Origin: Mycoplasmatota bacterium | GTDB lineage: Bacteria > Bacillota_I > Bacilli_A > MAG-NZ | DNA length: 64,000 nt | Assembly (NCBI GenBank): GCA_018394315.1 | Contig: CP074575.1 | Location: forward strand, 620,001 to 684,000 | Direction: 5' to 3' | Shown here: positions 44,003 to 63,050 of the stretch, one piece after another | Position numbering within the stretch: position 1 is the stretch's first letter | How the letters are laid out: every line of letters starts with the position of its first letter | The notes under the pieces: model-generated | Told to the model about the DNA's origin: nothing | The model's database searches: none | The model's input: only the letters and a program-made list of their open reading frames with translations | Program-made: the position numbers and the translations under genes

Positions 44003-45689
44003 ACTGGTTTTGAATAAATTTATCATTCTTAGCGAGGAAGAAAAATCAGCTATAGAGATTGATTTTAGCAATAACTTAAACATCTTTGTAGGTAAGAATA
44101 AATCCGGAAAATCATCACTCGCAAAATCGATATTATACACCCTGGGGTGTGATGTGGTTTTTGAGAATTCATGGAAGAATTTAGGGAAAACATATTTGTT
44201 GTTTTTCTCGTATGGCAATCAAAGTTACTCTATCAAGAGAGTGAATTTAGTTGGTAAGTATAATAATCAAAAAGGGTCTAACGTCTTTGAAGTTATAGAC
44301 CTGGAAACCCAAAAAATATACAAGTTCAACAAAACTACAGAATTTGCTTTTTTCTTGAACGAGCTATTCGGACTAAAGATAAGATTGTTGACCAGAAAAA
44401 AGTTGGAAACTTCAATTATATATCCGAATCACATGTTTCTCTTGAACTATCTAGATCAAGATACCAGTTGGGGAAATTTACTCACTGACACTTTTAACAA
44501 CCAGTCTTTTTTACTAGATTACAAGAATAGTATTTTGGATTTTTTCACAGGATTAAGGACGAATAAGTACTATGAATTAAGTAACAAAATTAAAGAACTA
44601 CAGAATGAAAAACATACTCTTAAGTTGGAATACGATAGTCTAAAGAAATTATACGAAATTAATCTGAAGAAAATTAATAAAATTGAGAACATAGACGTAG
44701 ATGTGTTTAAGGAGAGTATTAAGCTAATAAATAATCATGTCGAAGCCATAATAGGTAAAGAAGCAAAATTGAAAAAGAAGCTTTCATCATTTCTCTACGA
44801 GAGGAGTAAATTATTAGTACTTAATGAAAACCATGATGCAACATTAGAAAAGTCAGATCTTGACGCAAGTGGAAATTGTCCAGTTTGTGGTCTTCATAGG
44901 AAAATGGAGACCAAAAATTTATTTAGGATTACAACTAATATGTACGAACTAAGAAAAGAAAGAGATATGAACCTAGTAAGATTGGCGGACTTGGAGTTGA
45001 AAATCGAAAAGACAAAGGCTGACATAAACCTACTATCAGAAGAACAAAAATCAATGAGCATGCAGTTGAGAGTCGGAAATGAAAAACTTGACTTAATAGA
45101 ATCTATGAAAAATTTTGGCATAATTGAACTGAGTCAGGAATTAGAGAAAGAGTTCATGGAGAAATTATCTAAGATTGAAAGTTTAAACTCTGATATAAAG
45201 ATGAAGCAAAAAATCCTTAAGAGTTTTGATGATAATGAGCAGTTGGTATCGGATTATTATAAAAACTTAAAGAGAATTTTCAATAAACTTAAGATTAATT
45301 TTAAATTCAAGAATGATGCAAATGATTTTATGAGATTCAGCACTTCCTACTCTGGAACGGATAGGGTTTTGTCAATAATTGGATTCTATTTAAATGTCAA
45401 TAGATTTACAACACAGAATTACGACATACCTACTTTTCCATTTATTTTAGATACGTTATATAAAGAAGATTTTGATGACAAAAACGAGTTGAATCTAATT
45501 GAAGTATACATTTTAGAAGTGAGCCAACTAAATCAGCAACAGCTTCTTTTTACATCTGATAAGGCCGAGCTCATATCGTATTTAACAGAAAGTAATATAA
45601 AATATAATGTGATTGAGGGATATAGAAAATTACTAGATGTCAAAAAATATGACGACATCAAGAAAAGATATGCCCAGTTTAATTTATAG
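43992..45689 (+). CDS. SMC/Rad50-like ABC ATPase (Lamassu LmuB-like)
   Basis: GKNKSGKS Walker A, YLDQD..W Q-loop, coiled coils with CPVC hook, YSG signature, PFILDT Walker B. Confidence 0.8.
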   Translation: MMNKLVLNKFIILSEEEKSAIEIDFSNNLNIFVGKNKSGKSSLAKSILYTLGCDVVFENSWKNLGKTYLLFFSYGNQSYSIKRVNLVGKYNNQKGSNVFEVIDLETQKIYKFNKTTEFAFFLNELFGLKIRLLTRKKLETSIIYPNHMFLLNYLDQDTSWGNLLTDTFNNQSFLLDYKNSILDFFTGLRTNKYYELSNKIKELQNEKHTLKLEYDSLKKLYEINLKKINKIENIDVDVFKESIKLINNHVEAIIGKEAKLKKKLSSFLYERSKLLVLNENHDATLEKSDLDASGNCPVCGLHRKMETKNLFRITTNMYELRKERDMNLVRLADLELKIEKTKADINLLSEEQKSMSMQLRVGNEKLDLIESMKNFGIIELSQELEKEFMEKLSKIESLNSDIKMKQKILKSFDDNEQLVSDYYKNLKRIFNKLKINFKFKNDANDFMRFSTSYSGTDRVLSIIGFYLNVNRFTTQNYDIPTFPFILDTLYKEDFDDKNELNLIEVYILEVSQLNQQQLLFTSDKAELISYLTESNIKYNVIEGYRKLLDVKKYDDIKKRYAQFNL

Positions 45690-46029
45690 AAAGCACTTAA
45701 AAAAACATCTTACACCTTTGCTAAAATCGACGATTGAATACATAGGGTCAATGGTCTTAAATTTGAAGACGAGAAAACTTCTCGTTTTTTTAGTTTATTG
45801 TAGGTTTAGTATAGCCAGTGAAAAGTAACTTGATGAATTATCTCTCTAATAAGATAGTAATGTTATTATTGTTATTCAACTCAATTAAATTATTTTTCGA
45901 TAATATCATTAATAGAGCTTGCAGGGATTGAAAACAAGCCAAAGGACATTGAGTCCTTTTAAATTTGTTATTACTTATCAATGTGATATTATTAGAGTAA
46001 AGAAGTCTAGAATGTAAAGGAGAGATATT

Positions 46030-46368
46030 ATGAATTATAGTGATAGTATTAAAAAAATATTTGAGAACATGAAAGATATCGAAAAGAAACTTGAAAGTAA
46101 ATTGAATCAATTATCTTTCGATCCTAATACCAGTCTTGAAGTTAGAATTACTTTAGAGACGGAAGGTGCATTTGTTAGAATTAATCAGTGGAATGCTCCA
46201 TTAGAAAATATAGATAATTTAGATAAGGAAGAATTTTTTAATGGTGTATATATTAATATAATCAAATCTTTAGACCTCTATGTAAACAAGATGACTTGGA
46301 GTACCCGAGATTTTGATAAGTCTTTAGTTGAGAAAATCCAAACCGCTTTTAATGAAGAAATTGAGTGA
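46030..46368 (+). CDS. Hypothetical protein
   Basis: aaggag RBS, 112 aa. Confidence 0.6.
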   Translation: MNYSDSIKKIFENMKDIEKKLESKLNQLSFDPNTSLEVRITLETEGAFVRINQWNAPLENIDNLDKEEFFNGVYINIIKSLDLYVNKMTWSTRDFDKSLVEKIQTAFNEEIE

Positions 46369-46435
46369 TAATTTTTTTTATAACTTTATGAAATAAGATG
46401 TAGTGGAGCAAGTTTATCATTTGAAGGAGAGTATC

Positions 46436-47170
46436 ATGAAAAATATAATTAAGATGTTGGGAGTAATAGTCATTATATTTTTGGTAACTATTATAGCTAT
46501 TGATAAATATATGGCCATAGTTCCGGATTTACATGTAAATAAAGGGGAAACCAATATTGAAGTTAAGAAAGTGTCTTATTGTTGGGAAGCATTGCTAAGC
46601 GGTATTTGCGTAGACACAATAAATCCAGAAGACATGCTGAAGGGGATTGAGCCAACAAAAGTTAAGCCCGGTGATACTTTAAGGTTGGATTTTTCAAAAA
46701 GCCCAGATACAGTTCGTGCATCAGTTTATGAAATTAATCAACCACTAGACTATGATATAGAATATGGACTATTAAAAGTTCCAGAAGAGAAAGGAGTTTA
46801 TATTATCAATGTGCTTGGAGGATGGGGAGGAGGAGCTGTTCCATATGTTCTTACGATAGAAGTTGAGGGTGAGAAGGTGCCAGAGCAAAACTGGATAAAT
46901 CGACCACAATTAGTTTATGAAGGCCTATGGTATTTGTTAAAATCTGATTCTCATATAGATATAGATATAGATTCACTTGAACTAAATTATATAGGAGTAC
47001 TGACTGGAGAAGATGACTTAGTATTTAAGCCAAGAGACAACCTTGAATCTAATACACATATAGGTTATTATCTTTTTGTAAATAAAAACGATACTTCAAA
47101 TTTATATGTCTATGTATCACCAGGTCTCACAATAGTTGAACCTGAAAGTTTAATTATTTTCAAAAGATAA
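46436..47170 (+). CDS. Hypothetical exported/membrane-anchored protein
   Basis: N-terminal TM, SYCW...CVD motif; aaggag RBS. Confidence 0.65.
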   Translation: MKNIIKMLGVIVIIFLVTIIAIDKYMAIVPDLHVNKGETNIEVKKVSYCWEALLSGICVDTINPEDMLKGIEPTKVKPGDTLRLDFSKSPDTVRASVYEINQPLDYDIEYGLLKVPEEKGVYIINVLGGWGGGAVPYVLTIEVEGEKVPEQNWINRPQLVYEGLWYLLKSDSHIDIDIDSLELNYIGVLTGEDDLVFKPRDNLESNTHIGYYLFVNKNDTSNLYVYVSPGLTIVEPESLIIFKR

Positions 47171-47302
47171 TAGTTAGGTCGATAAAAATAGTAGAATTTG
47201 AGAGCGGCGAAGAAGCTCGATTAGTTATAAGTACTAAAACATATCTTCTCTACCAATTAGTGATGAGTGCTGTAATGATTTATTTGTTGGAACTATTCAA
47301 GG

Positions 47303-47394
47303 TTAGGATTGAAAATCCATGTGTCGTCGGTTCGATGTTGACTGAAGTCCGATATATTAGTTCTGATAAACAAAGGGGATATGACATCCCTTTT
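47303..47394 (+). repeat. 92-bp direct repeat, copy 1 (tRNA-Phe-like fragment plus palindrome)
   Basis: Nearly identical to 48470-48560. Confidence 0.9.
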
Positions 47395-47465
47395 GTTGTT
47401 TTATATTAATAAATATATACGACTGTGTATTTATGGTATAATTAACTGCAAAACGGGGGGACATT

Positions 47466-48416
47466 ATGGCTAGAGCACCTTTTCAGGTATTAGTAATACC
47501 TTATAAATTCACATCTGAAGGAATCAAGTATTGTATTTTTAGAAGAGAAGATGTAGAAGTTGATATGTGGCAATGGGTATCAGGAGGGGGAGAAGATACA
47601 GAATCAAGTTTAGAATCTGCAAAAAGAGAGATGAACGAAGAAACTGGAGCTATAGTTTTAGAAATTATTCCTTTAAGTTCAATGACATATATTCCAGCAT
47701 ACTTTTTTGAAGAAATGACAATGAATTATCCCGATCACATTGTAATTCCTGAGTATTCTTTTGGGGCTCTCGTTGGACAAGAGATTGAATTATCTGATGA
47801 ACACTCAGAGTATAAATGGGTTGATTATGAAACTGCAATGATTTATTTGCATTGGGATAGTAATAAAACAGCTCTATATGAACTACATATAAGACTGAGC
47901 AAATTAGAACTTTGGGATGTTTATAATAAAGATAGAAAACGAACAGGCAAGATTGTTGTTAGAGATCAATATGAGTTTTCAGGAGATGAGTATCATCTAA
48001 TCGTCATTATTTGGATTATTGATTCTAATAATAAAGTATTAGTTCAAAGAAGGTCTTATAATAAGGATTTCTTACCTGGATTAATCGCGACACATGGTGG
48101 TTCAGCAATTGCTGGAGAGGGTTCTTTAGAAAGCGCTATTAGAGAAGTAGAAGAAGAGATTGGGATCACATTAGAAGAAAACGAAATGAAACTGTTCTCT
48201 TCAAAGATTGAGAGAAATAGAATTTATGATAGCTATGTGGTGAACAAACTTATTCTTTTAGAACACTTGAAAATAGATCCTGAAGAAGTTGATTCTTGCT
48301 ATTATATGTCTATTGGCGAAATAAAAGAGAGCATCAAAGAAGGGGAGTTTTTTGATTATTTGAAGCGTCAAGGAAATGATTATTTTGACAAGATATTTTC
48401 TTCAATAAAAAAATAA
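47466..48416 (+). CDS. Tandem double NUDIX hydrolase
   Basis: Two Nudix boxes: GGGED...SAKREMNEETG and GGSAIAGE...AIREVEEEIG. Confidence 0.88.
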   Translation: MARAPFQVLVIPYKFTSEGIKYCIFRREDVEVDMWQWVSGGGEDTESSLESAKREMNEETGAIVLEIIPLSSMTYIPAYFFEEMTMNYPDHIVIPEYSFGALVGQEIELSDEHSEYKWVDYETAMIYLHWDSNKTALYELHIRLSKLELWDVYNKDRKRTGKIVVRDQYEFSGDEYHLIVIIWIIDSNNKVLVQRRSYNKDFLPGLIATHGGSAIAGEGSLESAIREVEEEIGITLEENEMKLFSSKIERNRIYDSYVVNKLILLEHLKIDPEEVDSCYYMSIGEIKESIKEGEFFDYLKRQGNDYFDKIFSSIKK

Positions 48417-48469
48417 TGAGACTCGTTTAGAGTTTCTTCTATATCGTTGATTTTGATACAAGATGTAGT

Positions 48470-48560
48470 TTAGGATTGAAAATCCATGTGTCGTCGGTTC
48501 GACTTGACTGAAGTCCGATATATTAGTTCTGATAAACAAAGGGGATATGACATCCCTTTT
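48470..48560 (+). repeat. 91-bp direct repeat, copy 2
   Basis: Matches 47303-47394 except tg/c after ttcga. Confidence 0.9.
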
Positions 48561-48679
48561 TTCTTGTAACTTTTTTATGATGATACTAAAAATGCAATGA
48601 GAGAAAATATAAAGTATAATTTATCGGGGAAATATTGATCCCTTGATGCGCGCTTCTCTGACTTAGAAAGGTTGGAGAA

Positions 48680-48955
48680 ATGAAAGGGAAAGTAGTTAGA
48701 AAAGCAATTGAGATTTATCAATTAATGGTGGTAGAAGAAAGAGCATTCTCAAAGGAGGAATTATCTGAAGAATTAAATGTATCGATAAGAACTATTCAAG
48801 ATTACTTTGGAGAAATCAATATTTACCTTTTTGACAGACATGATTATAGGCAGATTATGTATGATCGCTCTATAAAAAAAACATGTTATCAAAGCAATCT
48901 AAAAGCAGAACATATTTTCTGCTTTTCTTCTAACTGGAAGGATAAGTTATATTAA
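48680..48955 (+). CDS. Small winged-HTH protein, copy 1 (C-terminus frameshifted by one extra A)
   Basis: Near-identical to 60315 and 62681; poly-A at about 48864 is one base longer. Confidence 0.75.
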   Translation: MKGKVVRKAIEIYQLMVVEERAFSKEELSEELNVSIRTIQDYFGEINIYLFDRHDYRQIMYDRSIKKTCYQSNLKAEHIFCFSSNWKDKLY

Positions 48956-49288
48956 GGTGATCCCTGTAATATCTATAAATAGTGAAGCCGGATACTCCAG
49001 TGATTTTGTGACACAGTTTTACTAATACCTATGTATGCTATAATTATTATATAAATGAAGTGATCTTTAGGAGGTAATTCCATGTTTGTTAAAGTTTTCT
49101 CGTACGATATACTTCGTTTGGCATTTGAGTCAATTTATGACTCTTTTTTTATATAATATTCGTATGCTATAATATTCATAATGTAAGTGAAGATGAACTT
49201 GAGAAAGATTTATTTAGTTTTCATAAAAGACCACTTGTTATAGAGTGAATATATAGAGTTATAGTAAATTATAAGTGGAGGGATAATA

Positions 49289-49978
49289 ATGAATGAATAT
49301 GTTAAGGTTAGTAATCAGAGTCTCTTTGATAAACACATTTATGAAAAAGGATTAGGAGTTGTAGAAGAAGTAGCAATGAGTCTAAAGGTTATGTCAGAGG
49401 CTGAATATATCACCAGCGACGATATTATAGGATTTATTAGATACGATAAGTTTCTAAGAGAAAAATTGTATAAATATTTATCTGTTACTGAAGAGTTTCT
49501 ACGTAATGAACTGTATAAAAATCTTGAATATAATGGTTCCAGAACAATTATGTATACAAAAGATTATAAGTCTTCAGATTTTAAAGTAAATGAAGATAAT
49601 TCATATGGATACAATTTCTTTAAAAAAGCTAAAATGCTTTTTTCTGTAATCATAGATTTATATACTCATTTTGAAGGACAATTACTTATGTCATTTAAGT
49701 TCTCTTTAGAAGACATCAAAAACATAGGAAATCTTAGAAATCTTGTGATGCATCATAGCTTACTAGTTATAAATCAGAACTCTACAGAAATAACTAAAGA
49801 TTCCATTGGTGATAGAGTTATGCTAGTGTTAAAATATCTGATGTCACTAATATATGTGATACCTAATGAGTATCGCAAAGGATTAATTACTGATATAAAT
49901 AAGGCTAATTTGGATAAGGGCGTTTACGGTTCAAAATCGAAATATATATACATTGAATTTATTGAAGGGGGATATTAA
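49289..49978 (+). CDS. Abi-like (AbiD/AbiF-type) HEPN protein
   Basis: YDKFLREKLYKYLSVTEEFLRN helix and RNLVMH (RxxxxH) motif. Confidence 0.7.
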   Translation: MNEYVKVSNQSLFDKHIYEKGLGVVEEVAMSLKVMSEAEYITSDDIIGFIRYDKFLREKLYKYLSVTEEFLRNELYKNLEYNGSRTIMYTKDYKSSDFKVNEDNSYGYNFFKKAKMLFSVIIDLYTHFEGQLLMSFKFSLEDIKNIGNLRNLVMHHSLLVINQNSTEITKDSIGDRVMLVLKYLMSLIYVIPNEYRKGLITDINKANLDKGVYGSKSKYIYIEFIEGGY

Positions 49979-50580
49979 TGGAGTATAAGAAGAAAATAGA
50001 TACAAAAGAGTATCGTACATTGTTTTTTGAAGCTTATAAGTATGTGAACTCTGTGATAGATGATTATAGTTTCTACTTTAGATTGATTGGTAGTGCAAAA
50101 AGGAACTTGGTTCTTGATAAACCCAACAAAGGATTTGATTTTGATTATCAGATTATTTTCTATCAATCACTAGTTGGAGAAGGATCGGATAAGCTGATAG
50201 AAATAAAGGATAGATTTAGACATGCCTTTGATGATTTCTTTGTAGAAAAAGGTTATGAATATGGTGAGGATTCAACCTCCGCTATAACTATAAAGATGTT
50301 AGATGGAGATAAAATATATCATTCATATGACGTTACTCTAATGACTCCTAATAGTGTAGATAAACTTTGCATCTTCAAATACAATGACAATGAAAAGACT
50401 GAAATGGGTCTGAATGAAATGAGAAAATCTGCTATGTTTAAGGAAAAATATAAGAAGATTAAAGGTGCTCAAAAATGGAAAGAGTTAAGAGATGAGTATA
50501 AAATAAGGCAAGAAGAATGGAATGGAGAAAGGAAATCCTTCTCTATATTAATGAGTGTAGTTAACGATATGAAGTTATAA
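49978..50580 (+). CDS. cGAS/CD-NTase-like nucleotidyltransferase
   Basis: LIGSAKRN...FDFDY...SAITIK...SYDVT catalytic triad pattern; TAATG coupling to upstream gene. Confidence 0.65.
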   Translation: MEYKKKIDTKEYRTLFFEAYKYVNSVIDDYSFYFRLIGSAKRNLVLDKPNKGFDFDYQIIFYQSLVGEGSDKLIEIKDRFRHAFDDFFVEKGYEYGEDSTSAITIKMLDGDKIYHSYDVTLMTPNSVDKLCIFKYNDNEKTEMGLNEMRKSAMFKEKYKKIKGAQKWKELRDEYKIRQEEWNGERKSFSILMSVVNDMKL

Positions 50581-50593
50581 TGGGGGGCGTACT

Positions 50594-51598
50594 ATGCTGT
50601 ATGATAAGGTCGAAATAGGTAAAAGACTCAAAGAGTTGAGAGAAGAATCCAACATAACTCAAGATGAAGCGGCAAAACTCATAAATATATCAAACAGAAC
50701 TTTAAGTGATTGGGAAAAAGGTAAAACAGATTTCTCCATTCAGAGATTAAAAGAAATATCTGATGCCTTCAACATTAGTATTAACTATTTCATACCATTT
50801 GAGTATGAAGATTTTGATGTTGATGAAATAATATTAAAATCATTGGATTTTGGTATAAAGAAATATGGGTTACTTACTTGTGTTGTAATCTTTATTACTT
50901 TTTATCTTAATATATTTTTTCAATCAACAGTCTTAAATACAGTCATCATAATTGAGTTTATTTTATTTTGTTGCTATATTATCATTTTAATAATGAGAAG
51001 GTTAACATCTAGAAGAATCATAAAAAAGTATTCTAGAAAGAACAGTTTGATTTATCAATCTTTTTACTCAGATAAAGAACTAAGAAACCTTCATAAAGAC
51101 ACTGTAGGTTTAATTGTTTTGTCAATCTTCATCTCGCTATTTTCTGCAACTTGTATAATAGGATTTTACTTCTCCGAAACGATAGGAAGTTATCTAGATA
51201 CTATTATTGTGTTTTTATTAATCTTAGTTTTTGTATGGGGATTAATTCTCTTAGGATTCTTCATAAAGACAAAACCATTAAAACCTATATTAGATTACTT
51301 TAGAGAAAATCAAGTAATTACAGTAGTTATATTGAACGCTTATATTGTCTTAATATCAATACTGTTTATGTATGGGTTAGTCTTAAATACTTATGTTCAA
51401 ACCGAAGTTCCTAAATGGGTTGTCATTACTATATATACATATCTGCTCATTGATATACTTTTTCTTTTAACAACTAGTTATATAGTTCAGAAGTATTATC
51501 ATAAACTTGATATTATTTCAGTAAATCCAAAAACGAACCAATTGAAAATCTTGTTTTCAGCTAATGAAAAGATTCCGGAAATGCCGGAACATCACTAA
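50594..51598 (+). CDS. XRE-family HTH protein with multi-TM C-terminus
   Basis: IGKRLKELREESNITQ...SNRTLSDWEKG plus about 6 hydrophobic segments. Confidence 0.8.
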   Translation: MLYDKVEIGKRLKELREESNITQDEAAKLINISNRTLSDWEKGKTDFSIQRLKEISDAFNISINYFIPFEYEDFDVDEIILKSLDFGIKKYGLLTCVVIFITFYLNIFFQSTVLNTVIIIEFILFCCYIIILIMRRLTSRRIIKKYSRKNSLIYQSFYSDKELRNLHKDTVGLIVLSIFISLFSATCIIGFYFSETIGSYLDTIIVFLLILVFVWGLILLGFFIKTKPLKPILDYFRENQVITVVILNAYIVLISILFMYGLVLNTYVQTEVPKWVVITIYTYLLIDILFLLTTSYIVQKYYHKLDIISVNPKTNQLKILFSANEKIPEMPEHH

Positions 51599-51652
51599 CC
51601 CCATTGAAATCCTGCTTACATAGTTGTAAATTAACTATGAGGAGGTGATTTC

Positions 51653-51820
51653 ATGAAGAAATCAATAGGAACAATCGTTGGAGTAATTTTAGTTATAATA
51701 ATACTGCAATTTGTAACAGTGGATGAAATGATTGTTGGGGTATTAAGTGGTTTTTTCTGGGTATTTGAAAAATCAGTTATAGTTATACATGAAATTTTTA
51801 CATTTGTGTTAGGACTTTAA
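51653..51820 (+). CDS. Small hydrophobic protein (55 aa, not in ORF track)
   Basis: ggaggtg RBS; MKKSIGTIVGVILVIIILQF...; terminator-like hairpin follows. Confidence 0.6.
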   Translation: MKKSIGTIVGVILVIIILQFVTVDEMIVGVLSGFFWVFEKSVIVIHEIFTFVLGL

Positions 51821-52356
51821 GTCATCTAAAAAATCGGAAGTTATCTTAGACTTCTTTTTTAACGAATTTTATATGACTAAATATGCCAGGTTACTTTTTT
51901 GATACCCTTTGATATCTTTAGGTGTAGAAATAGCACCGAAAGGAGAGAATATGTATGTTACAAGTTTGAATAATGGTATTGTGACAGTAATCCAAACATC
52001 AGATAATACATGTAGACACTTCAATATATGTCTTTTAGGTCTCCAACATCGATGTTCTATCTATATAACATTAAAAGCCTCTATAATGAGGCTTTATTTT
52101 TATAAATCTATCTTTATAGACGAAAAGTCATTCAAAATGACTTTTCTATGGGTTTTTAGAAAAAAGTGTATCTAAATTGATTATGAAAAAGGAATATTGG
52201 ATAAATGTTTATTTTTTTCTTTTACCAGGAAGATAGGCTTCCGACTGTTTTGACTTTCTAAGAATTGTCAAATAGTTTATAAAAATTGATTGATATGCTA
52301 ATCTAGCATCCTAAAAATACATCTTATAGATGCTGATTTTGAAATATGTGATACAC

Positions 52357-53568
52357 TTATAGCGTAAAGAGTGTATCGTTTTTACATAAAGAGAAAATAA
52401 TCCTGATTAGTTTAGTGGTTGCGGCTACAACACTTTCTTTTTCAGTTTTAGTTTCTTTTTTCTTTATATAATAAAGTAGAATAGGATGATTTCGGTAGTT
52501 ATTATATGAACTGATTGTAATATTTTTAATAGATGTGTAAAGTATTTTCCGAGCTGCACTATTACCAGCTTTAGATATTTTACCGTTAACTAAACTATTA
52601 CCTGATTGATAAATAGTTGGCTCTAATCCACAATAAGCATTGATTTGCTTGTAACTGTTAAATCTAGAAATGTCTTTCAACTCAGCTATTAATTGAGAAG
52701 TTCGTAGTTCTCCTAATCCTGGGATGGAATTTATATTAGGAAAGAACCGTGTTGTTTTAGCAAGTTCAATAAGTTCGTCATTAACTATTCCTTGTTCTTT
52801 TTGTAGGGTTTTTACTATCCTTATTGTACATCGCAAGTTCTGAGTTTCAGTACTGTCTTTGTGAACTCCAGGATACGAGTTTTTAGAATGTTCTTTCATT
52901 GATTTTGCTTCGCTTCTTAGTCTATTCAAATAGTTTCTCTTGAAAGATGAATTTAAGTTGTTAGCTAATCTGTCAACTCTAGTGGAAGCGATTATTTCAC
53001 TATGAGGAAATTCGTAGTAAAAGTTAAGCATCTTTGCGGTGTATTTCTTATGTTTATCCTTGTTACTATCAGTAGTTACATAGAAAGACTCATGTTCAGG
53101 TATGCAAATATCTAGCAACCTTACATATCTATTTTTCATAGCTGTTAGTGACTTTTCTAGAGCTAGATACTGTCTGTTGAGTGTAGTTAAATTATCGTAA
53201 ATATTCAGCGATTTCAAAGCATTACTTTTAATGTCCTCCTTAAAATAACAATTAGCAATTTTAAAACAATCTTCCTTATCGGTTTTAGTCTTTCTAAATG
53301 AAGTATCACTCTTTTTAACAAGATTGGGATTAATAATGATTACACTATACTTGTATTCATCGAAGAATCTTTCTACTGGATAATGATAACTACTTGTTGA
53401 TTCCATAATTACTGTTAACTTTTCTTTCAACCTTCTTTCGTTAATTATTTGATCTAGTTGTTTAAAGTTACTTAATGTATGTTTATATTCAGTGGGTTCT
53501 AGTAAAATTTCTCCATGAACTGATTGAATATAAAAAACACTTTTCCCCTTAGCTATATCTATAGCCAT
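52357..53568 (-). CDS. IS110 family transposase/recombinase (may start at ATT 53589)
   Basis: DEDD residues in AIDIAK, MESTS, KTDKED; SIPGLG, YCGLEP..YQSG, ISKAGN. Confidence 0.93.
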   Translation of the reverse strand: MAIDIAKGKSVFYIQSVHGEILLEPTEYKHTLSNFKQLDQIINERRLKEKLTVIMESTSSYHYPVERFFDEYKYSVIIINPNLVKKSDTSFRKTKTDKEDCFKIANCYFKEDIKSNALKSLNIYDNLTTLNRQYLALEKSLTAMKNRYVRLLDICIPEHESFYVTTDSNKDKHKKYTAKMLNFYYEFPHSEIIASTRVDRLANNLNSSFKRNYLNRLRSEAKSMKEHSKNSYPGVHKDSTETQNLRCTIRIVKTLQKEQGIVNDELIELAKTTRFFPNINSIPGLGELRTSQLIAELKDISRFNSYKQINAYCGLEPTIYQSGNSLVNGKISKAGNSAARKILYTSIKNITISSYNNYRNHPILLYYIKKKETKTEKESVVAATTKLIRIIFSLCKNDTLFTL

Positions 53569-53609
53569 TACATATTCTGTTTTATCAATAATACTTACCT
53601 CTCTTTCTG

Positions 53610-53800
53610 CTTAAGCTTATACTGATTCCATTTTCCAATCACGCATGTTAAATGAGTTCTAGACCCCGCTTTCTTAACCGAAACAATAAAAGAAGTATAA
53701 GCAAGTCTCTCAAACCATTGAGTTCTAGTGACCCCTGTTATAATACGACTTTACTTAAACTAAATTAAACAAATATGATCAATATCTGTTTAATTGATTA
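53610..53800 (-). ncRNA. Candidate IS110 bridge RNA; ends approximate
   Basis: Two internal loops capped by near-identical ggggt(ca)ctagaactc hairpins; loop segments match the reconstructed target and donor sites. Confidence 0.75.
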
Positions 53801-53915
53801 TAAACCCAAGATAACAAAAAAAGATACTAGGTTTATACCTAATATCTTACGTGATATAATGTGTTGAAGTATTATAAGTAAATAGATGTAAAAAAGACTT
53901 ATTTATTGTTCCTAC

Positions 53916-53937
53916 GGGGTTCGAATCCCTTTTTCTC
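53916..53937 (+). repeat. Degenerate tRNA-Ser 3' att copy
   Basis: ggggttcgaatcccttttt ctc; preceded by the same end sequence as the other att copies. Confidence 0.8.
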
Positions 53938-54033
53938 TATGTTGATTCCGGCCGAGATATATGTTCTTTAAAAATTGCGGAGAATGATATATACTATTAA
54001 TAGTATACAAATTTATTGTGAGGAGGAATTGAA

Positions 54034-54657
54034 TTGTTAATCAAGTTCATCAAAGGAATTGGATTAATAGTCGGATTCGTGGGATTGCTCTATATTTTAT
54101 GGAATACATTACTCGGTTCTGGAATCATTGAGCGCGAGGTCACAGAGACAATGTATCAAGAAGAAACTGGAGTAATGAGAACATTTCTTTCAAATGGGTA
54201 TCAGTTAGGAGCTGATGAAGTAGCACATAGACTACATAAGACCGATAATTACGTTTTATTTGAAGACGTTACTTACGGATACTTACTGTTTGATTTTAAC
54301 GAAAATGAGGTTGGTTCATTTTGTGTGACACCAGAGGTGGATGGATATCAAAAGTCCTTCCACATAATATATGATTATGAAAATGATATCATTTCATTAG
54401 TTTATAAACAGATAGATAATGAGGGGGTTTATGAACTAGATGTTTTTCATACATTTCAAGATGAACTCATCAAAGTTAATAAAAATAATTTAAATGAAGA
54501 ATACAAACTCTACTCAGCTCATGAGATTGGATCAATGATGGCTAATTATAAAAATAATTTTCTCAATGAAATTGAGTATTTAGGAGTGTCCTTACAAGAG
54601 TTAATACAAGCAGAAATTACCGTAACTGAGACAGTTAAGTATGGTAAAGAGGAATGA
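54034..54657 (+). CDS. Hypothetical membrane-anchored protein
   Basis: gaggagg RBS, TTG start, N-terminal TM. Confidence 0.65.
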   Translation: MLIKFIKGIGLIVGFVGLLYILWNTLLGSGIIEREVTETMYQEETGVMRTFLSNGYQLGADEVAHRLHKTDNYVLFEDVTYGYLLFDFNENEVGSFCVTPEVDGYQKSFHIIYDYENDIISLVYKQIDNEGVYELDVFHTFQDELIKVNKNNLNEEYKLYSAHEIGSMMANYKNNFLNEIEYLGVSLQELIQAEITVTETVKYGKEE

Positions 54658-55149
54658 AATAGGATTATACATGAATTTATAGTAGGGGATATGACATCCC
54701 TTGTTATAGATATGCAGATAGGACATTGAGTCCCTTTTGTTTTGCTATTATTTGTTGATATCGAATGGGAGAAGTAAAAATAATCTAGAAACCGGATTAT
54801 TTTTTTGGAAAGTAAGAATCTGTCCCCCTAAAAAGTATAATAGATGTATGGGGATGAAAATCACCCTAGGCGGGTCTTTGAAAAGTTGATAATGAAATAG
54901 GTCGAAAATTGGCTGACGAGGGTTCGACTCCCGTATACTGTTCTAGATCATATTCCATATATTGAATAGATTTATGATGAGAGGGACATGACCTCCCTCA
55001 TTATATTTATACAGAGGACATTGATTCCCTTTTCATGTCTCTCTTGATAAAATAAATTACTAGGAACTAGTCAAAGGGACAATGAATTTCCTTTTCTTTA
55101 TTGTAATTTGTGGTTTTATGGTAAGATGTTATTAAATAGAGGTGAGCGT

Positions 55150-56322
55150 ATGTATGATAAGATGTTTCAGTCATTAGCTAAAGAATTAGATACCCTTGAA
55201 TCTCATAATATTTTCTTCAATACGTTCAATATTTTTGAAACATTGGGCGTTGTTAACGCCGAAATAAGGCATAGTAATGTTTTGGCGTGGTTACTTGATA
55301 GCTCTGAAACACATGGGTTAGAGGAAGTCTTCGTCAAGTTACTTTTGAATGACTTTGCTAATGTATATGATTATAAATTTTTAGCACAAGGAATAGCTTT
55401 CTCAGGTTTCGAAGTGAGGAGAGAGTGGAAAAACATCGACCTTCTCTTGATATCTCAGAGAGATAAAGTCGTTCTTACAATCGAAAATAAGATTTGGAGT
55501 TCTGAGTTTGATCATCAACTTGAGAAATATAAACGCATAGTAAATCAGAATTTCGGAGAGTATAAAAAAATATTTGTATTTTTATCTCCATTCGGTACTC
55601 CACCAAGTGATATGGATTATTGGTTAATATATGATTACTCCAGAGTTTTGGTAATATTGGAGGAATTGATTGAGAATAACAGAATCAATGTCTCTGATGA
55701 TGTTAGAATGTTTATTTTACATTATATAGAGAATCTTAGGAGGAATATCGTGGGAGATGAGAAATTAAGAGAACAATGTATAGAGATATACAGCAAACAT
55801 AAAAGAGCAATAGATCTGATAATTGATAATTTGCCTAATAATAGAAATGTGATTCAAAGGATAATCAATAACTATCTCTCTAACAGAGCTAATGTAGTTA
55901 AAGATGATTCAGGAAAGACTCGTATCAGGTTTACTACAAGAGTTTTGGATGGTCTAGTTCCTGCGGATGGAAGTGGCTGGACAAAGACTGGGAGGATTTT
56001 TTTGTTTGAGATTGAGAACTTCGAGCATCATGTGAAATTGAAAACTGTAGTGGGTCCTTCTTTGACTGGAAGTAGAGATATTCTACATGAATATATATGT
56101 AATAATAAAGCTAGTGGTCTCTTTCAAGATGCTGACTTAGAAGAGCAATCTGGAAAAAAATGGTCTCATGTAAACGGAATAGAATTAATAGACAGAAGTC
56201 CGACTGATATTTATGATGAAGGCTTACTAGAAAATATAATTATAACTAAATTAGATGTTGCTTTTGATGAATATATTCTTAAAGTGGAAAAGATGATATC
56301 TAGGTTTTACAAAAATGAATAG
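55150..56322 (+). CDS. PD-(D/E)XK nuclease superfamily protein (PDDEXK_4-like)
   Basis: EIRHSNVLAWLLD...HGL, RE...IDLL, IENK...QLEKY. Confidence 0.82.
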   Translation: MYDKMFQSLAKELDTLESHNIFFNTFNIFETLGVVNAEIRHSNVLAWLLDSSETHGLEEVFVKLLLNDFANVYDYKFLAQGIAFSGFEVRREWKNIDLLLISQRDKVVLTIENKIWSSEFDHQLEKYKRIVNQNFGEYKKIFVFLSPFGTPPSDMDYWLIYDYSRVLVILEELIENNRINVSDDVRMFILHYIENLRRNIVGDEKLREQCIEIYSKHKRAIDLIIDNLPNNRNVIQRIINNYLSNRANVVKDDSGKTRIRFTTRVLDGLVPADGSGWTKTGRIFLFEIENFEHHVKLKTVVGPSLTGSRDILHEYICNNKASGLFQDADLEEQSGKKWSHVNGIELIDRSPTDIYDEGLLENIIITKLDVAFDEYILKVEKMISRFYKNE

Positions 56323-56573
56323 ATTTGACTAACACATTTGATACCAAACTGGGTCTTATAGGGTTGTTGAATGCAATCTATGAAAAGAATGAACATAACA
56401 GGAAAGTTGCAAAACAAGGGTTAGAAACAATTACGTTTCAGAACTGTTAGAAAGGTTTGAGCTTGATTTTTTTGAATGAGGAGTAATTGCTACCGGCCAG
56501 TCGGATGCTGTACCTATACTCATTCTAAAAAATTAAATTTACCTACTAAAATAACTAATTGAAGGAGGAAAAC

Positions 56574-57851
56574 ATGTTAAAAGTAAAAAATTATAAAATC
56601 ATTAGAGAAGCAGAAATCAAAGTTGATGGTATTGTAGTATTGGCTGGGAAAAATAACACAGGAAAGAGTACAATAAGTGACTGTATGTATTACTCATCAA
56701 TAAAGGAAAGCCTAGGTGAAAAAGATTTTATGGCAGATTTATCTAATTATTGTTATGAAAGAATCAAAGAAGTTACAGGATTTACGCGTTCTAGTATTTT
56801 GAGGGATAATAAGAAATTAAAAGATTTCTATTCAAGATTTGATGATTTTTTATTAAATCTTACAGGATTTATGCATCCTGAAGATATATATAAATCTTGT
56901 AAATCTTTTCGTGAGCACACTGAGATAATACTCAGGGATGTTTTGGGTCTGGAAAAGAACAGATCAAGTAAAAATAGACTATATAGAAGTACTTTCTTAA
57001 ATTATAAGGATATTTTTGAAGAATTAATGTTGTTCATTGAGGAAAGCGACTTTGATGAATTTGTTGATAAATATGCTGACTCCTTACACAGTACTATTTT
57101 TCCTGAAGGTACTTTACCTAGGTTTAACAATTTAATTATGAGTGAAAGAAACTATAAGCAAACACTTTCCTTTGGTAATGGTTGTAAAATTAATAATGCA
57201 ATATATGTGAAAAGCCCTGTACTATGGGCTGAAAATTCTAATAGAAATAGATTTGATGAGAACCCAACTCTTCATTTAATTAAAAAAAATAAAACTGATT
57301 ACTTATCATATTTAACATCAACAAAAAAAACTTTCAGCAGCATCTATGGTGAAGATAAAGAAATCGGAATAGTAGCAGATTTTGTACATGAAGCCGAAAA
57401 AATTATTGAAGGGTCATTGTTCCTGGATAAGAACAATGAAATTAAATTTACAAATAAGTTTGGTAATGAGTTCACTTTAAATGAGATGGGAACAGGGTTT
57501 TCCAATTTTGCAATTTTATTACTATTGATCCAACATAACCAAATAGATGAGAATACACTTATTATATTCGATGAGCCTGAATCACACCTTCATACATTAT
57601 GGCAGTATGATATTGGTAGATTGTTTGTATTGATGCACAAGTACTTCAAATGTCCCATTTTCATTAACTCTCACAGTTCTCTAATTATTGAATCAATCGA
57701 ATCAAATTCAGAAGAGCAAGCGATAGAGGCTAATTATTACCTTACAAGCAGAAATAAGGATGGTAGTTATACTGTTGAGAACAAAACTGATAATATTAAT
57801 GAAATCTATAGAGAATTATCAAGAGCATCTAGAAAAATTAAATATGGTTAA
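56574..57851 (+). CDS. AAA_15/AAA_21-like ABC ATPase
   Basis: GKNNTGKS, MGTG signature, IIFDEPESHLH, NSHS. Confidence 0.85.
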   Translation: MLKVKNYKIIREAEIKVDGIVVLAGKNNTGKSTISDCMYYSSIKESLGEKDFMADLSNYCYERIKEVTGFTRSSILRDNKKLKDFYSRFDDFLLNLTGFMHPEDIYKSCKSFREHTEIILRDVLGLEKNRSSKNRLYRSTFLNYKDIFEELMLFIEESDFDEFVDKYADSLHSTIFPEGTLPRFNNLIMSERNYKQTLSFGNGCKINNAIYVKSPVLWAENSNRNRFDENPTLHLIKKNKTDYLSYLTSTKKTFSSIYGEDKEIGIVADFVHEAEKIIEGSLFLDKNNEIKFTNKFGNEFTLNEMGTGFSNFAILLLLIQHNQIDENTLIIFDEPESHLHTLWQYDIGRLFVLMHKYFKCPIFINSHSSLIIESIESNSEEQAIEANYYLTSRNKDGSYTVENKTDNINEIYRELSRASRKIKYG

Positions 57852-58386
57852 CCTTATGAAAAAGCAAGATTATATCAGTGCTATTAATTCAACTTATACT
57901 AATTACATAAAGTCTGCAAAGATCATTTCATATGATGATACTAACGATGTCTATGTTACAAGCTTATTAAAGGAATTCTGGGAATTTGATAAAATATCTC
58001 AGAGGGATCATAATGGAGTTAGAAGTGTGGATACAGTTATCATTAATAATGATTTGTTTTTAATAGAATTTAAAAACACAAGATCTCTTAAATCTGCAAA
58101 CATTAGACAGAAATATTTTGATACATTTATAGTTTTACTAGAGTCTTATTATAAGATGCTCAGCAGTAAAATTCATATTGACACTTTTTTGCAGTCATTT
58201 GATTCTGTAAATGTAATAGTTGTTAACTCTCAATATAGACCTAGTCATTCAGCAACTTTGGATGAATATAGAAGGAGATATGAGATTTTGTTTCCAAAGA
58301 TTAAGAATCTAATCTTTGATGCAATGGATCCAGAGGATTTTACAAATCGGTTTTCTGAATTTGACTATGCAACACATTGTTACTAG
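57844..58386 (+). CDS. Small PD-(D/E)XK-like partner of the ATPase
   Basis: RSVD...FLIEFKN...RQK motif; overlaps ATPase stop. Confidence 0.6.
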   Translation: MVNLMKKQDYISAINSTYTNYIKSAKIISYDDTNDVYVTSLLKEFWEFDKISQRDHNGVRSVDTVIINNDLFLIEFKNTRSLKSANIRQKYFDTFIVLLESYYKMLSSKIHIDTFLQSFDSVNVIVVNSQYRPSHSATLDEYRRRYEILFPKIKNLIFDAMDPEDFTNRFSEFDYATHCY

Positions 58387-58610
58387 TCAGAGCAACAGGC
58401 ATAAAACATTAAAACTGCTTTTGGAAGTCATTTATTGACTTCTTTTTTTTAGAAAGTTGTACAATCGATCTCCAACACCGTGGTGATAGATCACACAATA
58501 AGAAGCCTCTAAAAAAGTGGCTTTTGTGATATATATAGAATATGCGCAAATAACATGTTAATATTATTATGTATAAGATTTGAGGATACATCAGTAAGAG
58601 GAGGGGTAAC

Positions 58611-59789
58611 ATGGATAATGGAGTGAGATTTGCATTATTGGATACAAAGAAAGCATTAGATCTATGTGATGTTTATAACGATCTATTGCCACTAAAAGGG
58701 AAGATTCGTAAAGCATATAATAGACTTAAAAACACTAGTAAGACAGGTGATTTGCTCAGATATCTAGAAAAATTTGAAAGTGAAAAGCATAGGGATGCTG
58801 ATGAATTTCAAGTGTTCCATAAATACAATCTTGTGACATTTGAAGAAATGGGACCTATCATTAGAAGGGAATTTAGTGATGAGATACTGAATATTTCCAA
58901 AATTTCTGAGTTAATACTAGGCAAGTCTTATAATAACTATGAAATAATTAACACTTTTCAATGCTCCGAACAAGGAGGTATGAGGAGATCTCACAAAACT
59001 AATACACTCGTAATTGTTTCCGATCATACAAAACCGTTATACGACGATAGATGGGATGAAGAAGGTGTACTTCACTATACTGGCATGGGAAAATCGGGAG
59101 CTATGGACATAGATTTTGCTCAGAACAGAACTGTAAAAGAGTCAGGGGTAAATTCTACAGAGATGCACTTGTTTGAAGTATTTGATAGTAGCACTAATAC
59201 TAAATATGTTTACAGAGGTATTATTGAATTATATGCTCAACCATATCAAGATAATCAAATTGGTGAAGATGGAAACTTAAGGAAAGCCTGGATATTCCCT
59301 CTATTACCGCGTCATCGTTTTACTGTTAACTCAATCAGATTAAAAAAAATTGGTGATGAAAAAGATAAAACTGCTGCTAGAATGTCGGATGAAGTGATAA
59401 ATAAATACGCTAAATCAAGAAGCAATCAACCTCCATCAAAAAGAATTGCTCGCACTGTAATTGTGAATAGAGACCCAATTGTCAAGGAATTCGTAAAGAG
59501 GAGAGCTAATGGGAGATGCGATCTTTGTGATGAAGATGCACCGTTTAAAGTCAAAGAAAAAATTCCATATTTAGAAGTACATCACATAATACAACTAGCT
59601 GATGATGGACCAGATACAATTTATAATGCTGTAGCACTTTGTCCTAACTGTCATAGAAAAGTTCATTATGCTTTAGAAACACAGGACAGAGTAAAAATGT
59701 TAAGAAAACTGGATAAGTATTTAAATAATGATAATGACAAAGAAAATAAGGAAAGTTTTATTAAATTGTTTGCGCTTGGTGAGAACTAG
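58611..59789 (+). CDS. SRA-like domain plus HNH endonuclease (McrA-like)
   Basis: GGMRRS...YDDRW...HYTGMG; CDLC...EVHHI...NAVALCPNCH. Confidence 0.82.
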   Translation: MDNGVRFALLDTKKALDLCDVYNDLLPLKGKIRKAYNRLKNTSKTGDLLRYLEKFESEKHRDADEFQVFHKYNLVTFEEMGPIIRREFSDEILNISKISELILGKSYNNYEIINTFQCSEQGGMRRSHKTNTLVIVSDHTKPLYDDRWDEEGVLHYTGMGKSGAMDIDFAQNRTVKESGVNSTEMHLFEVFDSSTNTKYVYRGIIELYAQPYQDNQIGEDGNLRKAWIFPLLPRHRFTVNSIRLKKIGDEKDKTAARMSDEVINKYAKSRSNQPPSKRIARTVIVNRDPIVKEFVKRRANGRCDLCDEDAPFKVKEKIPYLEVHHIIQLADDGPDTIYNAVALCPNCHRKVHYALETQDRVKMLRKLDKYLNNDNDKENKESFIKLFALGEN

Positions 59790-59829
59790 AATTAAATAGA
59801 TATAAATATTTCAAATAGGAGGGTATGAT

Positions 59830-60051
59830 ATTAATAAAAGAGGAATTGGAGTAGCATTTTGTGGGATTTCTTCATTACTGTTTAGTTCATGGTATATAAG
59901 TGCAGCAATTATCTTTCAAGGGTTGACTAGGTGGAGTGGGAATAAGTTCAAATATTCACTAGGTCAAGTTGGTGTCTTATTACCTTTATTAAGTATTATT
60001 GCTTTAGTAGTAGGGATTGTATATTTAGTAAAATTCAAGAATGAAAGGTAA
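59830..60051 (+). CDS. Small two-TM protein, apparent ATT start (not in ORF track)
   Basis: ggaggg RBS 6 nt before ATT; 73 sense codons (x)NKRGIGVAFCGISSLLF... Confidence 0.5.
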   Translation: MNKRGIGVAFCGISSLLFSSWYISAAIIFQGLTRWSGNKFKYSLGQVGVLLPLLSIIALVVGIVYLVKFKNER

Positions 60052-60314
60052 ATCATAACTATATGATTTATTTTTTTTAGAGTGACATATAGGTGTCAGT
60101 GTGAAGGTGGATATTGAACTTGAGTTAACAAAGATTGAATATAGATTTGAAGAATTAATTTCATAAATTTGGGGTTCACTTCACAGACATTCCTTTTTCT
60201 TGTTACTTTTTTATTATGATACCAAGAATGCAGTAAGAGAAAATATAAAGTATAATTTATCGGGAAATATTGATCCCTTTATGCGCGCTTCTCTGACATA
60301 GAAAGGTTGGAGAA

Positions 60315-60536
60315 ATGAAAGGAAAAGTGGTTAGAAAAGCAATTGAGATTTATCAATTAATGGTTGTAGAAGAAAAAGCATACTCAAAGGAGGAATTATC
60401 TGAAGAATTAAAAGTATCTATAAGAGCTATTCAGGATTACTTTGGAGAAATCAATATTTACCTCTTTGACAGACATGATTATAGGCAGATTTTGTATGAT
60501 CGCTCAATAAAAAAACATGTTATCAAAGCAATCTAA
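60315..60536 (+). CDS. Small winged-HTH protein, copy 2
   Basis: SKEELSEELKVSIRAIQDY HTH; followed by aaaagcag/ctgctttt terminator. Confidence 0.8.
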   Translation: MKGKVVRKAIEIYQLMVVEEKAYSKEELSEELKVSIRAIQDYFGEINIYLFDRHDYRQILYDRSIKKHVIKAI

Positions 60537-60657
60537 AAGCAGAATATATTTCCTGCTTTTTCTTTTACCTGGAAGATAGGCTTCCGACTGACATGATATA
60601 ATGTGTTGAAATATAAAAAAATAATAGATGTAAATAAAGCTTATTTATTGTTCCTTC

Positions 60658-60684
60658 GGGGTTCGAATCCCTCTTTCTCCGCCA
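60658..60684 (+). repeat. Exact 27-bp tRNA-Ser 3' att copy
   Basis: ggggttcgaatccctctttctccgcca equals 37794-37820. Confidence 0.95.
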
Positions 60685-60770
60685 TAAAAACATGATAGGT
60701 AAGCGAAAAAACTTTGATTTAGCCCAAGGGAGTGTATGAGATTCATTCCTGGGGACTTTAGAGTAATTGC

Positions 60771-60960
60771 TTACCTTATTTTATTTATTGGAGAATACTT
60801 GCTGTGTTGCTCTTTTAGATGATTATTTGATAAGTGTAGATACTCTTGAGTTGTTGTTATCTTAGCGTGTCCTAAGGTTTCTCTTACAAATTCTATGTTT
60901 GCACCATTCTCTAAATAGTTAGTAGCATATGTATGACGGAATTTATGAAAGCTTATACTT
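60771..60960 (-). pseudogene. Integrase C-terminal remnant
   Basis: Closely matches 37908-38097 (SISFHKFRHTYAT...YSPINKIR); 5' part deleted. Confidence 0.9.
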
Positions 60961-61580
60961 GATTTTGGAGTAAGGACGGATAGTACAAAATAATCTTCAA
61001 AGTCTTTTATATATTATAAAAGCGTCGCTCATGTAACTTTGTCGTAAGGTTATTAAGTCTGTTTACCTTTCCCATTGTTTCTTTAAGAGTACCTATAGTC
61101 AATTCACTTTCATAACTTCCACTCTCAATTATAATAAAGACTCTGTTAGTAGCTAAAAATTTGCATCAATACCCATAAAATAGACGCTTAAAGCGGCTAT
61201 TTTAAGTAGATGTTTACTATGAAAGAATTTTCCTTGAGTAAAAATTTATCGTGTGATATAGTAACATAACCAGATACTAATAAAATTCAAATGAAGGGAG
61301 GAAGTTAATCGCTGATACAATTATAATGGGAAGGCACCTCAATAAGCTTGGTTAGGTAAGCTAAACAACGTGAAGTTTTATTCCACTTATATTATCAGGT
61401 AGTAAAAAATCATTAAGTAAATTATCTAGAAGTTATGTTATTCTTTATTAATTGTTCTATTAATTGCGGTAAGTTGTAACCACTCTTTCTAAGCTACATG
61501 TTGAAATATTGACACACCTATATTTAGTATAATTATTGGTATGTGGGGAAGTGTCTAAACAGAGTAAGGAGAGAAATAAA

Positions 61581-62902: not shown

Positions 62903-63023
62903 AAGCAGAATATATTTTCTGCTTTTTCTTTTACCTGGAAGATAGGCTTCCGACTGATGTGATATAATGCGTTGAAAAATTAAAAATAAATAGATGTAAA
63001 AAAGACTTATTTATTGTTCCTAC

Positions 63024-63050
63024 GGGGTTCGAATCCCTCTTTCTCCGCCA
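63024..63050 (+). repeat. Exact 27-bp tRNA-Ser 3' att copy
   Basis: Equals 37794-37820. Confidence 0.95.

Follow-up and report, generated by a model that had tools for sequence, protein, structure and literature searches.

What directs a mobile element of the IS110 group to its landing site, and can the answer be read from the non-coding end of the element itself? This question is raised by a window of 64,000 nucleotides (nt) from a Mycoplasmatota bacterium (by window we mean the whole stretch analysed, positions 620,001 to 684,000 of the forward strand of contig CP074575.1, assembly GCA_018394315.1), where an earlier note made from the sequence had pointed to an IS110 element with a bridge RNA apparently programmed against the extended -10 promoter box. 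With a probability of about 0.8, we conclude that the minus strand holds an intact IS110-group bridge-recombinase element whose bridge RNA is guided to such a box.

When the 2.17-Mb single-contig genome was searched with itself, the intact element proved to be present as one full copy, and two paralogous insertion sites lacking the interruption came to light within the window, which fix the element ends independently. The features that delimit the element and its site are:

52251..53854, minus strand: IS110-group element including both TCA words; ends from the two empty paralogous sites
62923..63008, minus strand: empty paralogue of the insertion site; self-search and reading
60557..60637, minus strand: second empty paralogue of the insertion site; self-search and reading
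53569..53851, minus strand: left non-coding end, 283 nt, with the predicted bridge RNA; alignment of 18 left ends
52357..53568, minus strand: recombinase/transposase open reading frame (ORF), 403 aa, with D4, E56, D97, D100 and S322; Pfam and alignment
53852..53860, plus strand: hit box TGATATAAT, of the extended -10 type, with its TG as the recombination core; sequence reading

The empty sites read CATTATATCA-CAT/TGT-CAGTCGGAAGCC, their right part being read as CAGTCGG, and the occupied site runs from CATTATA-TCA directly into CGTAAG, through the element to TAGAAAG-TCA, and on into AAACAGTCGG. Comparison of the empty and occupied states indicates that the target ATTATA-TCA-AAAC and the donor AGAAAG-TCA-CGTA reconstructed in the earlier note were correct, and that nothing beyond the shared core was duplicated. 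The proposed identity of the element also held, given that the Pfam domains of the ORF and the ends taken from the empty sites agree; both the protein family and the element ends are direct observations. The element proper (53851..52253 plus one CA core) measures 1601 bp and lacks terminal inverted repeats, with non-coding ends of 283 nt on the left and ~103 nt on the right. According to the part of PMC11208160 available to us (a restriction that applies to all the papers cited here), IS110-group elements have a long left and a short right end, no terminal inverted repeats and no duplication past the core, and in IS1111 elements the guide RNA lies in a long right end and there are sub-terminal inverted repeats of 7-17 bp. 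The layout found here is that of the IS110 group, and IS1111 was ruled out by the short right end and by the position of the guide loops in the left one.

The ORF matches PF01548 (DEDD_Tnp_IS110, 5.2e-22) and PF02371 (Transposase_20, 6.5e-20), both past their cut-offs, and contains the motifs AIDIA (D4), MESTS (E56), KTDKED (D97, D100) and YQSGNS (S322), the last three in register with MEATS, KTDAVD and YESGSS of ISCro4. These are the D-E-D-D and serine motifs known as catalytic in IS621. Alignment to the solved recombinases is distant (E 5.5e-10 for ISCro4 and 4e-9 for IS621), the best matched stretch covering 68 residues. The relatives begin their ORF eight codons earlier, at an ATG (MDDKKEYV.., corresponding to 53569-53595 of the window); in this element and in L019 an in-frame ATT occupies that position, so translation here starts either at the ATT or at the ATG at 53568. 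Altogether, the hallmarks of the IS110 group can all be recognized in the sequence: the protein domains, the D-E-D-D and serine motifs, the end layout, a two-loop RNA in the left end and a junction promoter. An expressed bridge RNA, a circular intermediate and RNA-dependent recombination are further traits of the group and are predicted for this element.

The four words proposed as guides lie exactly where the earlier note had placed them on the minus strand (ATTATAACA at 53744-53736, GGTTTGA at 53716-53710, AGAAAG at 53674-53669 and TGCGTGA at 53645-53639). Their extent and their match to the flanks and ends of this copy are as follows:

53736..53744, minus strand: left target guide ATTATAACA, 7 nt plus the CA core, TGTTATAAT on the plus strand; 8/9 to its own left flank
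53710..53719, minus strand: right target guide AATGGTTTGA, reverse complement TCAAACCATT; 8/10 to the right flank TCAAAACAGT
53669..53674, minus strand: left donor guide AGAAAG, identical to the bases with which the right end closes (..TAGAAAG before TCA)
53639..53645, minus strand: right donor guide TGCGTGA, pairing with TCACGTA (core plus start of the left end) with one G-T

Taken one by one, the words were common when the 283-nt left end was shuffled 20000 times (left-target word at 8/9 in 2913, right-target pairing at 6/7 in 16562, donor word at 6/6 in 2636 and donor pairing at 7/7 in 3395), and the four words jointly, in the right order and with the loop spacing, appeared in 0/20000. The match within the window alone is therefore suggestive and falls short of proof. 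Decisive support for the guides is comparative, and comes from about 25 elements of 39-74% protein identity, found in genomes of the same order and class, in Izemoplasmatales/Mollicutes-type metagenome-assembled genomes and in metagenome contigs, where the same columns change together with the flanks and ends. At E <= 1e-30 the homologues number 617. The repeated word GGGGTC..AGAACT, tried as a finder of relatives, matched only the element's own copies and the 151-nt fragment described below.

For the left target guide, the variants ATTATAACA, ATTATATCA, AGTATAACA, AGTATATCA, TTTGTATCA and CAAATTACA each stand beside their own cognate left flank. The 26 rows with a full 9-nt flank agree at 9/9 in 13 cases, 8/9 in 10, 7/9 in one and 6/9 in two, and among further loci there are ten at 9/9 and one matching at all 8 positions available; counted by relatives' insertions, the guide columns equal the flank at 9/9 in 23. 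The columns of the right target guide differ in nearly every element and track the right flank, as illustrated by TCATAAAG (8/8 in L037), TCAAACCT (8/8 in the L021 group) and TCAATTTGTT (10/10 in L064). In a set of 12 distinct elements, the right guides scored 53.5 against their own right flanks versus 38.5+-3.6 when permuted, a value reached by only 3/100000 permutations. The donor guides behave in the same way: the left one (AGAAAG, AGATAG or AGAATG) covaries with the right element end, and the right one changes from GCGTGA to GCATGA where the left end starts with TGTA.. and not with CGTA.. (CGTAAG here). Moreover, genome G004 offers seven near-identical copies sharing one guide, with left flanks ATTATAACA (five times), ATTATATCA and ATTAAAACA, and right flanks TCATACTA (three times), TCATATTA (twice), TCACACTA and TCATACAC, to be compared with the guide TCATACTATT. 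The earlier note had named ends or targets unrelated to the loops as the observation that would undo its proposal; in the relatives both follow the loops, and its guide interpretation is supported.

In the same genome G004, the related element L027 (reverse strand, element positions 794-1236) shows a 442-bp tandem repeat of the left end and the 5' part of the gene, whose second left end is joined to ACTTCAACA within the ORF of the first copy, at 6/9 to its own guide. This repeat looks like an off-target or half-site event.

Where exactly strands are exchanged can be narrowed down from the junctions. In the relatives, both ACA and TCA occur at left junctions, and right junctions always have TCA; since only CA is common to both sides, the core is the CA dinucleotide; TCA appears as the core in this window because the target here has a T before CA. 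Of the core proposed earlier as TCA/CA, unlike the CT of IS621, the CA part stands and the TCA part has to be dropped. Both right guides, the one for the target and the one for the donor, end in an invariant TGA, whose A could pair with the T before the donor CA as a one-base handshake, by analogy with the handshake guides described for IS621/IS622 (10.1101/2025.05.14.653916, as available). Of such handshake guides, only this invariant A after TG can be assigned in both loops.

The guides would act from within a folded RNA, for which the left ends of the relatives, aligned over their full length, give a common architecture with an outer stem around two stem-internal-loop-stem units:

53609..53760, minus strand: bridge RNA core; RNAalifold consensus
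53760-53754 with 53615-53609, minus strand: outer stem of the bridge RNA, enclosing both loops; RNAalifold
53751-53747 with 53707-53703, minus strand: stem of the target-binding loop; RNAalifold
within 53701-53616, minus strand: stem of the donor-binding loop; RNAalifold

The consensus has 49 pairs, with 95.4% of the cells paired as compared with 29-52% when the partners are slid by 1-3 columns. The fold covaries, with compensatory changes in 16 pairs versus 4.9+-1.6 in shuffles, and 0/500 shuffles reach 16. Within the two loops, all four guide words occupy unpaired sides. A single-sequence fold of the left end (z = -2.8) is uninformative by itself, and the alignment fold was used instead. An Rfam scan of 51500-54500 returned only three matches at chance level (E 0.41-0.47), none of them within 53609-53760.

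Is the selected target really a promoter box? Together with the core, the left guide forms the complement of TG(T/A)TATAAT, and the CA core corresponds to the TG of the box. Hence the proposal that this guide is the reverse complement of TGn-TATAAT, and that the element sits in such a box, is borne out by sequence; promoter function of the box itself is unproven. The genome contains 325 TGWTATAAT sites, 184 of them in the 12.4% of the sequence outside crude gene calls. As many as 131/325 face a gene start within 150 nt, compared with 24 in the opposite orientation and with 250/2975 for the word without TG; in this genome TGWTATAAT is a real promoter hallmark. In this line, we scored 24 insertions, those of elements with A[T/G]TATA[A/T]CA guides, for a start codon preceded by a Shine-Dalgarno (SD) sequence and followed by a long ORF, downstream of the box and on the strand opposite to the element:

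24 insertions: 22/24 within 200 nt, 18/24 within 60 nt (our own row count)
TGWTATAAT sites of this genome: 169/325 within 200 nt, 120/325 within 60 nt
Random positions: 604/3000 within 200 nt, 203/3000 within 60 nt

The insertions do lie close to genes. Set against the word baseline, their binomial tails are 3.9e-5 for at least 22/24 and 7.7e-4 for at least 17/24; this baseline derives from a single genome, the insertions from many. A typical insertion reads TGTTATAAT, 6-30 nt, AGGAGG, 4-8 nt and ATG.

From these data a mechanism can be proposed, in which the 283-nt left end would encode a two-loop bridge RNA. Loop 1 would carry a 9-nt left target guide (ATTATAA plus CA) and a right target guide of ~8-10 nt, and loop 2 would carry those that recognize the joined ends of the element itself, AGAAAG(T)-CA-CGTAAG. 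In loop 1, the 5' side would bind ATTATA(A/T)CA through its bottom strand, and the 3' side would bind the top strand of CA together with 5-7 further bases, in keeping with the published rule (PMC11208160, in the part available) by which bottom-strand pairing belongs to the left guide and top-strand pairing to the right one, each guide including the core. The DEDD/serine recombinase would then swap strands at the CA common to target and donor, and exchange at this shared CA would explain entry without duplication. Since the complement of the left guide is TGTTATAAT, the preferred site would be the extended -10 box; the element would insert directly upstream of the -10 hexamer and be transcribed away from the gene, leaving TGnTATAAT whole beside its left end, with the TG regenerated from the donor core. 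As the clade keeps the left guide and lets the right one drift, different elements would pick different subsets of promoters through the 5-7 bases upstream of TG.

The excised form would add a promoter to this scheme, split between the two element ends and accompanied by a hairpin:

52266..52271, minus strand: TTGACA, candidate -35 half of the joined-end promoter, ending 15 nt from the right end
53844..53849, minus strand: TAAGAT, candidate -10 half, left-end positions 3-8; TAAGAT/TATGAT/TATACT/TATAAT/TATTAT in relatives
53821..53848, minus strand: terminal hairpin and T run with which the left end begins; terminator-like match, 12 pairs

TTGACA is exact at the fixed 15-nt distance in 34/37 rows, the other three having TTGTAA, and in joined ends with the left-end CG the spacer between TTGACA and TAAGAT is 17 nt. 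The excised circle, which would join TTGACA, 17 nt and TAAGAT, probably drives the bridge RNA and the recombinase from this putative promoter. The hairpin overlaps a 5' hairpin conserved in the family (helix 1) and kept with compensatory changes; it might halt read-through from outside, with transcripts of the junction promoter beginning within it. Two features of the sequence may bear on the fate of the adjoining gene. At the box, the hybrid site consists of TTTATA from the element (53832-53837), 17 nt and TATAAT with TG, a 10/12 site, and the -35-like hexamer contributed by the element is TTTATA or TTTACA in 16/24 insertions. Since the guide copies the target, the element itself carries a second outward-facing TGTTATAAT, at 53736-53744 of the plus strand. 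Predicted within this scheme are the expression of the RNA, its start site, active recombination, the formation of circles and any influence on the adjoining gene.

Several observations weigh against a bridge RNA guided to the extended -10 box. Regarding the guides, the fit at the element's own site is imperfect (left 8/9, right 6/7 or 8/10), a perfect ideal target of 13, 14 or 16 nt is absent from the genome, and 182 other genomic 13-mers come as close to the ideal as the real site. Right flanks are poor in L019 (2/7 past TCA) and, by our reading, in L058 and L062 (~5/10), and L024 fits badly at both flanks. Metagenome contigs are possibly chimeric at repeats, and L022/L049 and L047/L050 share the same left but different right flanks. 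Regarding the box, the 24 insertions are not independent lineages, seven of them deriving from one element, and the L035 flank extends for 67 nt with an ORF of only 13 codons to the contig end. Half of the TGWTATAAT sites already pass the proximity test, so part of the enrichment is due to the word as such, and the gene-proximal bias may be raised further where harmful insertions within genes are lost. The box hit by this copy is 173 nt from the nearest SD-preceded start, a promoter-like site at 53967-53995 is nearer to that ORF, the box lies within a ~210-nt island-end repeat at tRNA-Ser, and no nearby gene was found on that strand for the two paralogous boxes. Two sub-lineages target other sequences altogether. 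The L021 group (L021, L022, L044-L050), with left guide TTTGTATCA and right guide TCAAACCT, targets a hairpin plus T run directly 3' of tRNA genes; several of its contigs share the left but not the right flank, which suggests assembly chimeras. On the other hand, L056 and L064 target the near-palindrome CAAATTA-CA-ATTTGTT, the L064 guides matching at 9/9 and 10/10. Finally, no RNA run was found to contain the stretch, the transcript of the bridge RNA and its ends are predicted, and activity in this host is unproven, there being one full copy only.

This last point leads to the alternative that survives best, namely that the copy is a passenger relic which entered the island-end repeat in a different host, came with the tRNA-Ser island and is inactive here. 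The surroundings of the insertion lend it some weight. Downstream of a tRNA-Ser(tga) its 3' end recurs as an array of direct repeats, in ~210-nt units that each hold a hairpin, a TGATATAAT box and the tRNA 3' piece, and the element sits inside one of these units:

Window 37728-37820, 53851-53937, 60494-60704 and 62860-63070; genome 684273-684305 and 685422-685525: tRNA-Ser and repeats of its 3' end

The array looks like tandem integrative islands. Between the repeats, at 47466-59789, lie genes for a NUDIX protein, an HTH_3 membrane protein, a PDDEXK_4 nuclease, an AAA_15/AAA_21 ATPase and an HNH endonuclease, which together look like a defence-island mix. The idea that the hit box could be the promoter of a tRNA gene was rejected: ARAGORN found no tRNA in 45000-64000, and the GGGTTCGAATCCC..CTCCGCCA pieces repeat the tRNA-Ser 3' end (tRNA at 37728-37820).

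A site within a repeated island-end unit, together with one full copy plus one fragment and a genome in which no site matches the guides perfectly, would suit such a relic. Against it, the ORF, the catalytic motifs, the RNA fold and both ends are intact, and the fragment at 914 kb represents a second insertion event in the same chromosome. This 151-nt piece of left end (genome 914141-914291; L002 ~1500-1650) is 96% identical and adjoins TGATATAAT, 21 nt ahead of the SD-ATG of a gene. It stops just short of the right-target word, beyond which the DNA is unrelated; a deletion or an incomplete transfer of one junction may be the cause. In two metagenome runs with contigs ~90-95% similar, three further left junctions diverge only past the box, at 53860 or 53868; the same runs yielded no joints, no circle junction and no piece across the whole element. 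We grant the relic a minority chance. It concerns the history of this copy and not its mechanism, and it is compatible with guidance of the bridge RNA to the extended -10 box.

A second alternative accepts RNA guidance and regards promoter targeting as a by-product of an AT-rich word that promoters often contain, the gene-proximal pattern being mostly survivorship with no adaptation behind it, in that insertions within genes disappear and those that keep the -10 box whole are tolerated. It can count on the 169/325 TGWTATAAT sites that already pass the gene-proximity test, on relatives that retarget freely (the L021 group, L056/L064) and on the box of this very copy, which has no adjoining gene. 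Yet most distinct elements keep A[T/G]TATA[A/T]CA, by our tally, even where protein identity falls to 39%, the L021 group and L056/L064 being the only exceptions, while the right guide differs almost everywhere; moreover, 22/24 lies well above the 52% word baseline (binomial tail 3.9e-5). We consider this explanation improbable. The two retargeted sub-lineages indicate that promoter targeting is a habit of the clade and not an obligatory property, and the earlier description of a natural promoter-targeting RNA-guided recombinase, supported by the 22/24 insertions, has to be softened in that sense.

As for the notion that the four words are coincidental, with protein or DNA structure picking the target and the left end being a mere 5' untranslated or promoter region, it is scarcely credible. 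In its favour, single words are common in shuffles (2636-16562/20000), and neither the Rfam scan nor the look-up of RNA runs gave evidence of the bridge RNA. Against it, all four in order occur in 0/20000, the guide columns covary with flanks and ends across ~25 elements, and the fold is conserved with compensatory changes in an architecture that fits the published IS110 rule.

Guidance to the extended -10 box admits a bolder version, for which our support is tentative and stays well short of conviction: that a clade of bridge recombinases in hosts of Bacilli/Mollicutes type has fixed its left guide on the extended -10 box, with the TG of the box as exchange core, so that insertion would rewire the promoter and not destroy it. 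If this rewiring were true, these elements would be natural RNA-guided promoter seekers with a safe, host-independent landing site and an altered control of the downstream gene. In more general terms, a mobile element homing to transcription start regions by RNA-DNA pairing would find a landing site in every host, and its insertion would spare coding sequence and could alter gene control. Bridge recombinases are under development as programmable genome-writing tools, and natural targets reveal what the elements evolved for. In this regard, the present clade supplies distant orthologues whose core is CA and whose targets are AT-rich, with a right guide that appears longer than that of IS621.

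How does this clade compare with known systems? The closest named relatives in a plasmid collection are at most ~30% identical, and they are annotated IS110 family transposases of Bacillus, Lactiplantibacillus and Staphylococcus. One of them, L070 (Bacillus thuringiensis plasmid NZ_CP016589.1, 14474-17031; ~30% identical), shows a similar left-end plan with a hairpin plus T run and a loop flanked by GGTC..GACC. Its loop words spell no -10 box, but its ends are undefined and it is therefore not used as evidence. The IS900, IS901 and IS902 elements of mycobacteria, also of the IS110 family, reportedly insert between the ribosome-binding site and the start codon in a fixed orientation; they would share with the present clade a gene-expression signal as the site, and differ in that the signal is one of translation and the hosts are others. 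IS900 carries a host-expression-dependent (hed) ORF.

It is already published that IS110/IS1111 elements choose their targets by RNA, that this RNA follows a two-loop plan, that a promoter forms at the junction and that each element has a target of its own (PMC11208160; PMC11187229; 10.1101/2025.05.14.653916; 10.1101/2025.10.25.684509; each as available in part). As described in the portions available, IS621 and ISCro4/IS622 (PMC11208160; 10.1101/2025.05.14.653916; PDB 8wt6, 9t56) resemble the element described here in their DEDD and serine domains, in a two-loop RNA from the left end, in a left guide of the same sense as the top strand and a complementary right guide with the dinucleotide core inside both, and in a sigma-70-type promoter split between the right and left ends. 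They differ in their core, which is CT and not CA, in a protein similarity that is only distant, and in a right target guide of 4 nt as compared with the apparently longer ~8-10 nt here. The natural target differs too, being here the TGnTATAAT box. IS621 is known to target the repetitive extragenic palindromic (REP) sequence.

CazIS110-1 of Caloranaerobacter azorensis (10.1101/2025.10.25.684509, as far as available) is similar in its low-GC Gram-positive-type host and in having target- and donor-binding loops, and its bridge RNA pairs with the left target-right donor (LT-RD) and left donor-right target (LD-RT) junctions; the main text of that preprint, figures aside, contains neither ATTATA nor TATAAT nor the word intergenic. 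In ISEc21 and other seekRNA elements (PMC11187229, likewise in part) an upstream non-coding RNA matches both target halves, the circle junction forms a promoter and each element has its own target; for ISEc21 this is a conserved stretch within transposase genes of the IS3 family, and the available text does not describe a promoter box as a target. Among the papers listed by full-text searches, and in the available text of the founding papers, there was no description of a clade that targets the extended -10 box with a TG core, and the figures and supplements of the founding papers may hold related logos. Within the sources as available, a clade of bridge recombinases with the extended -10 box as its natural target and the TG of that box as its crossover core appears to be new.

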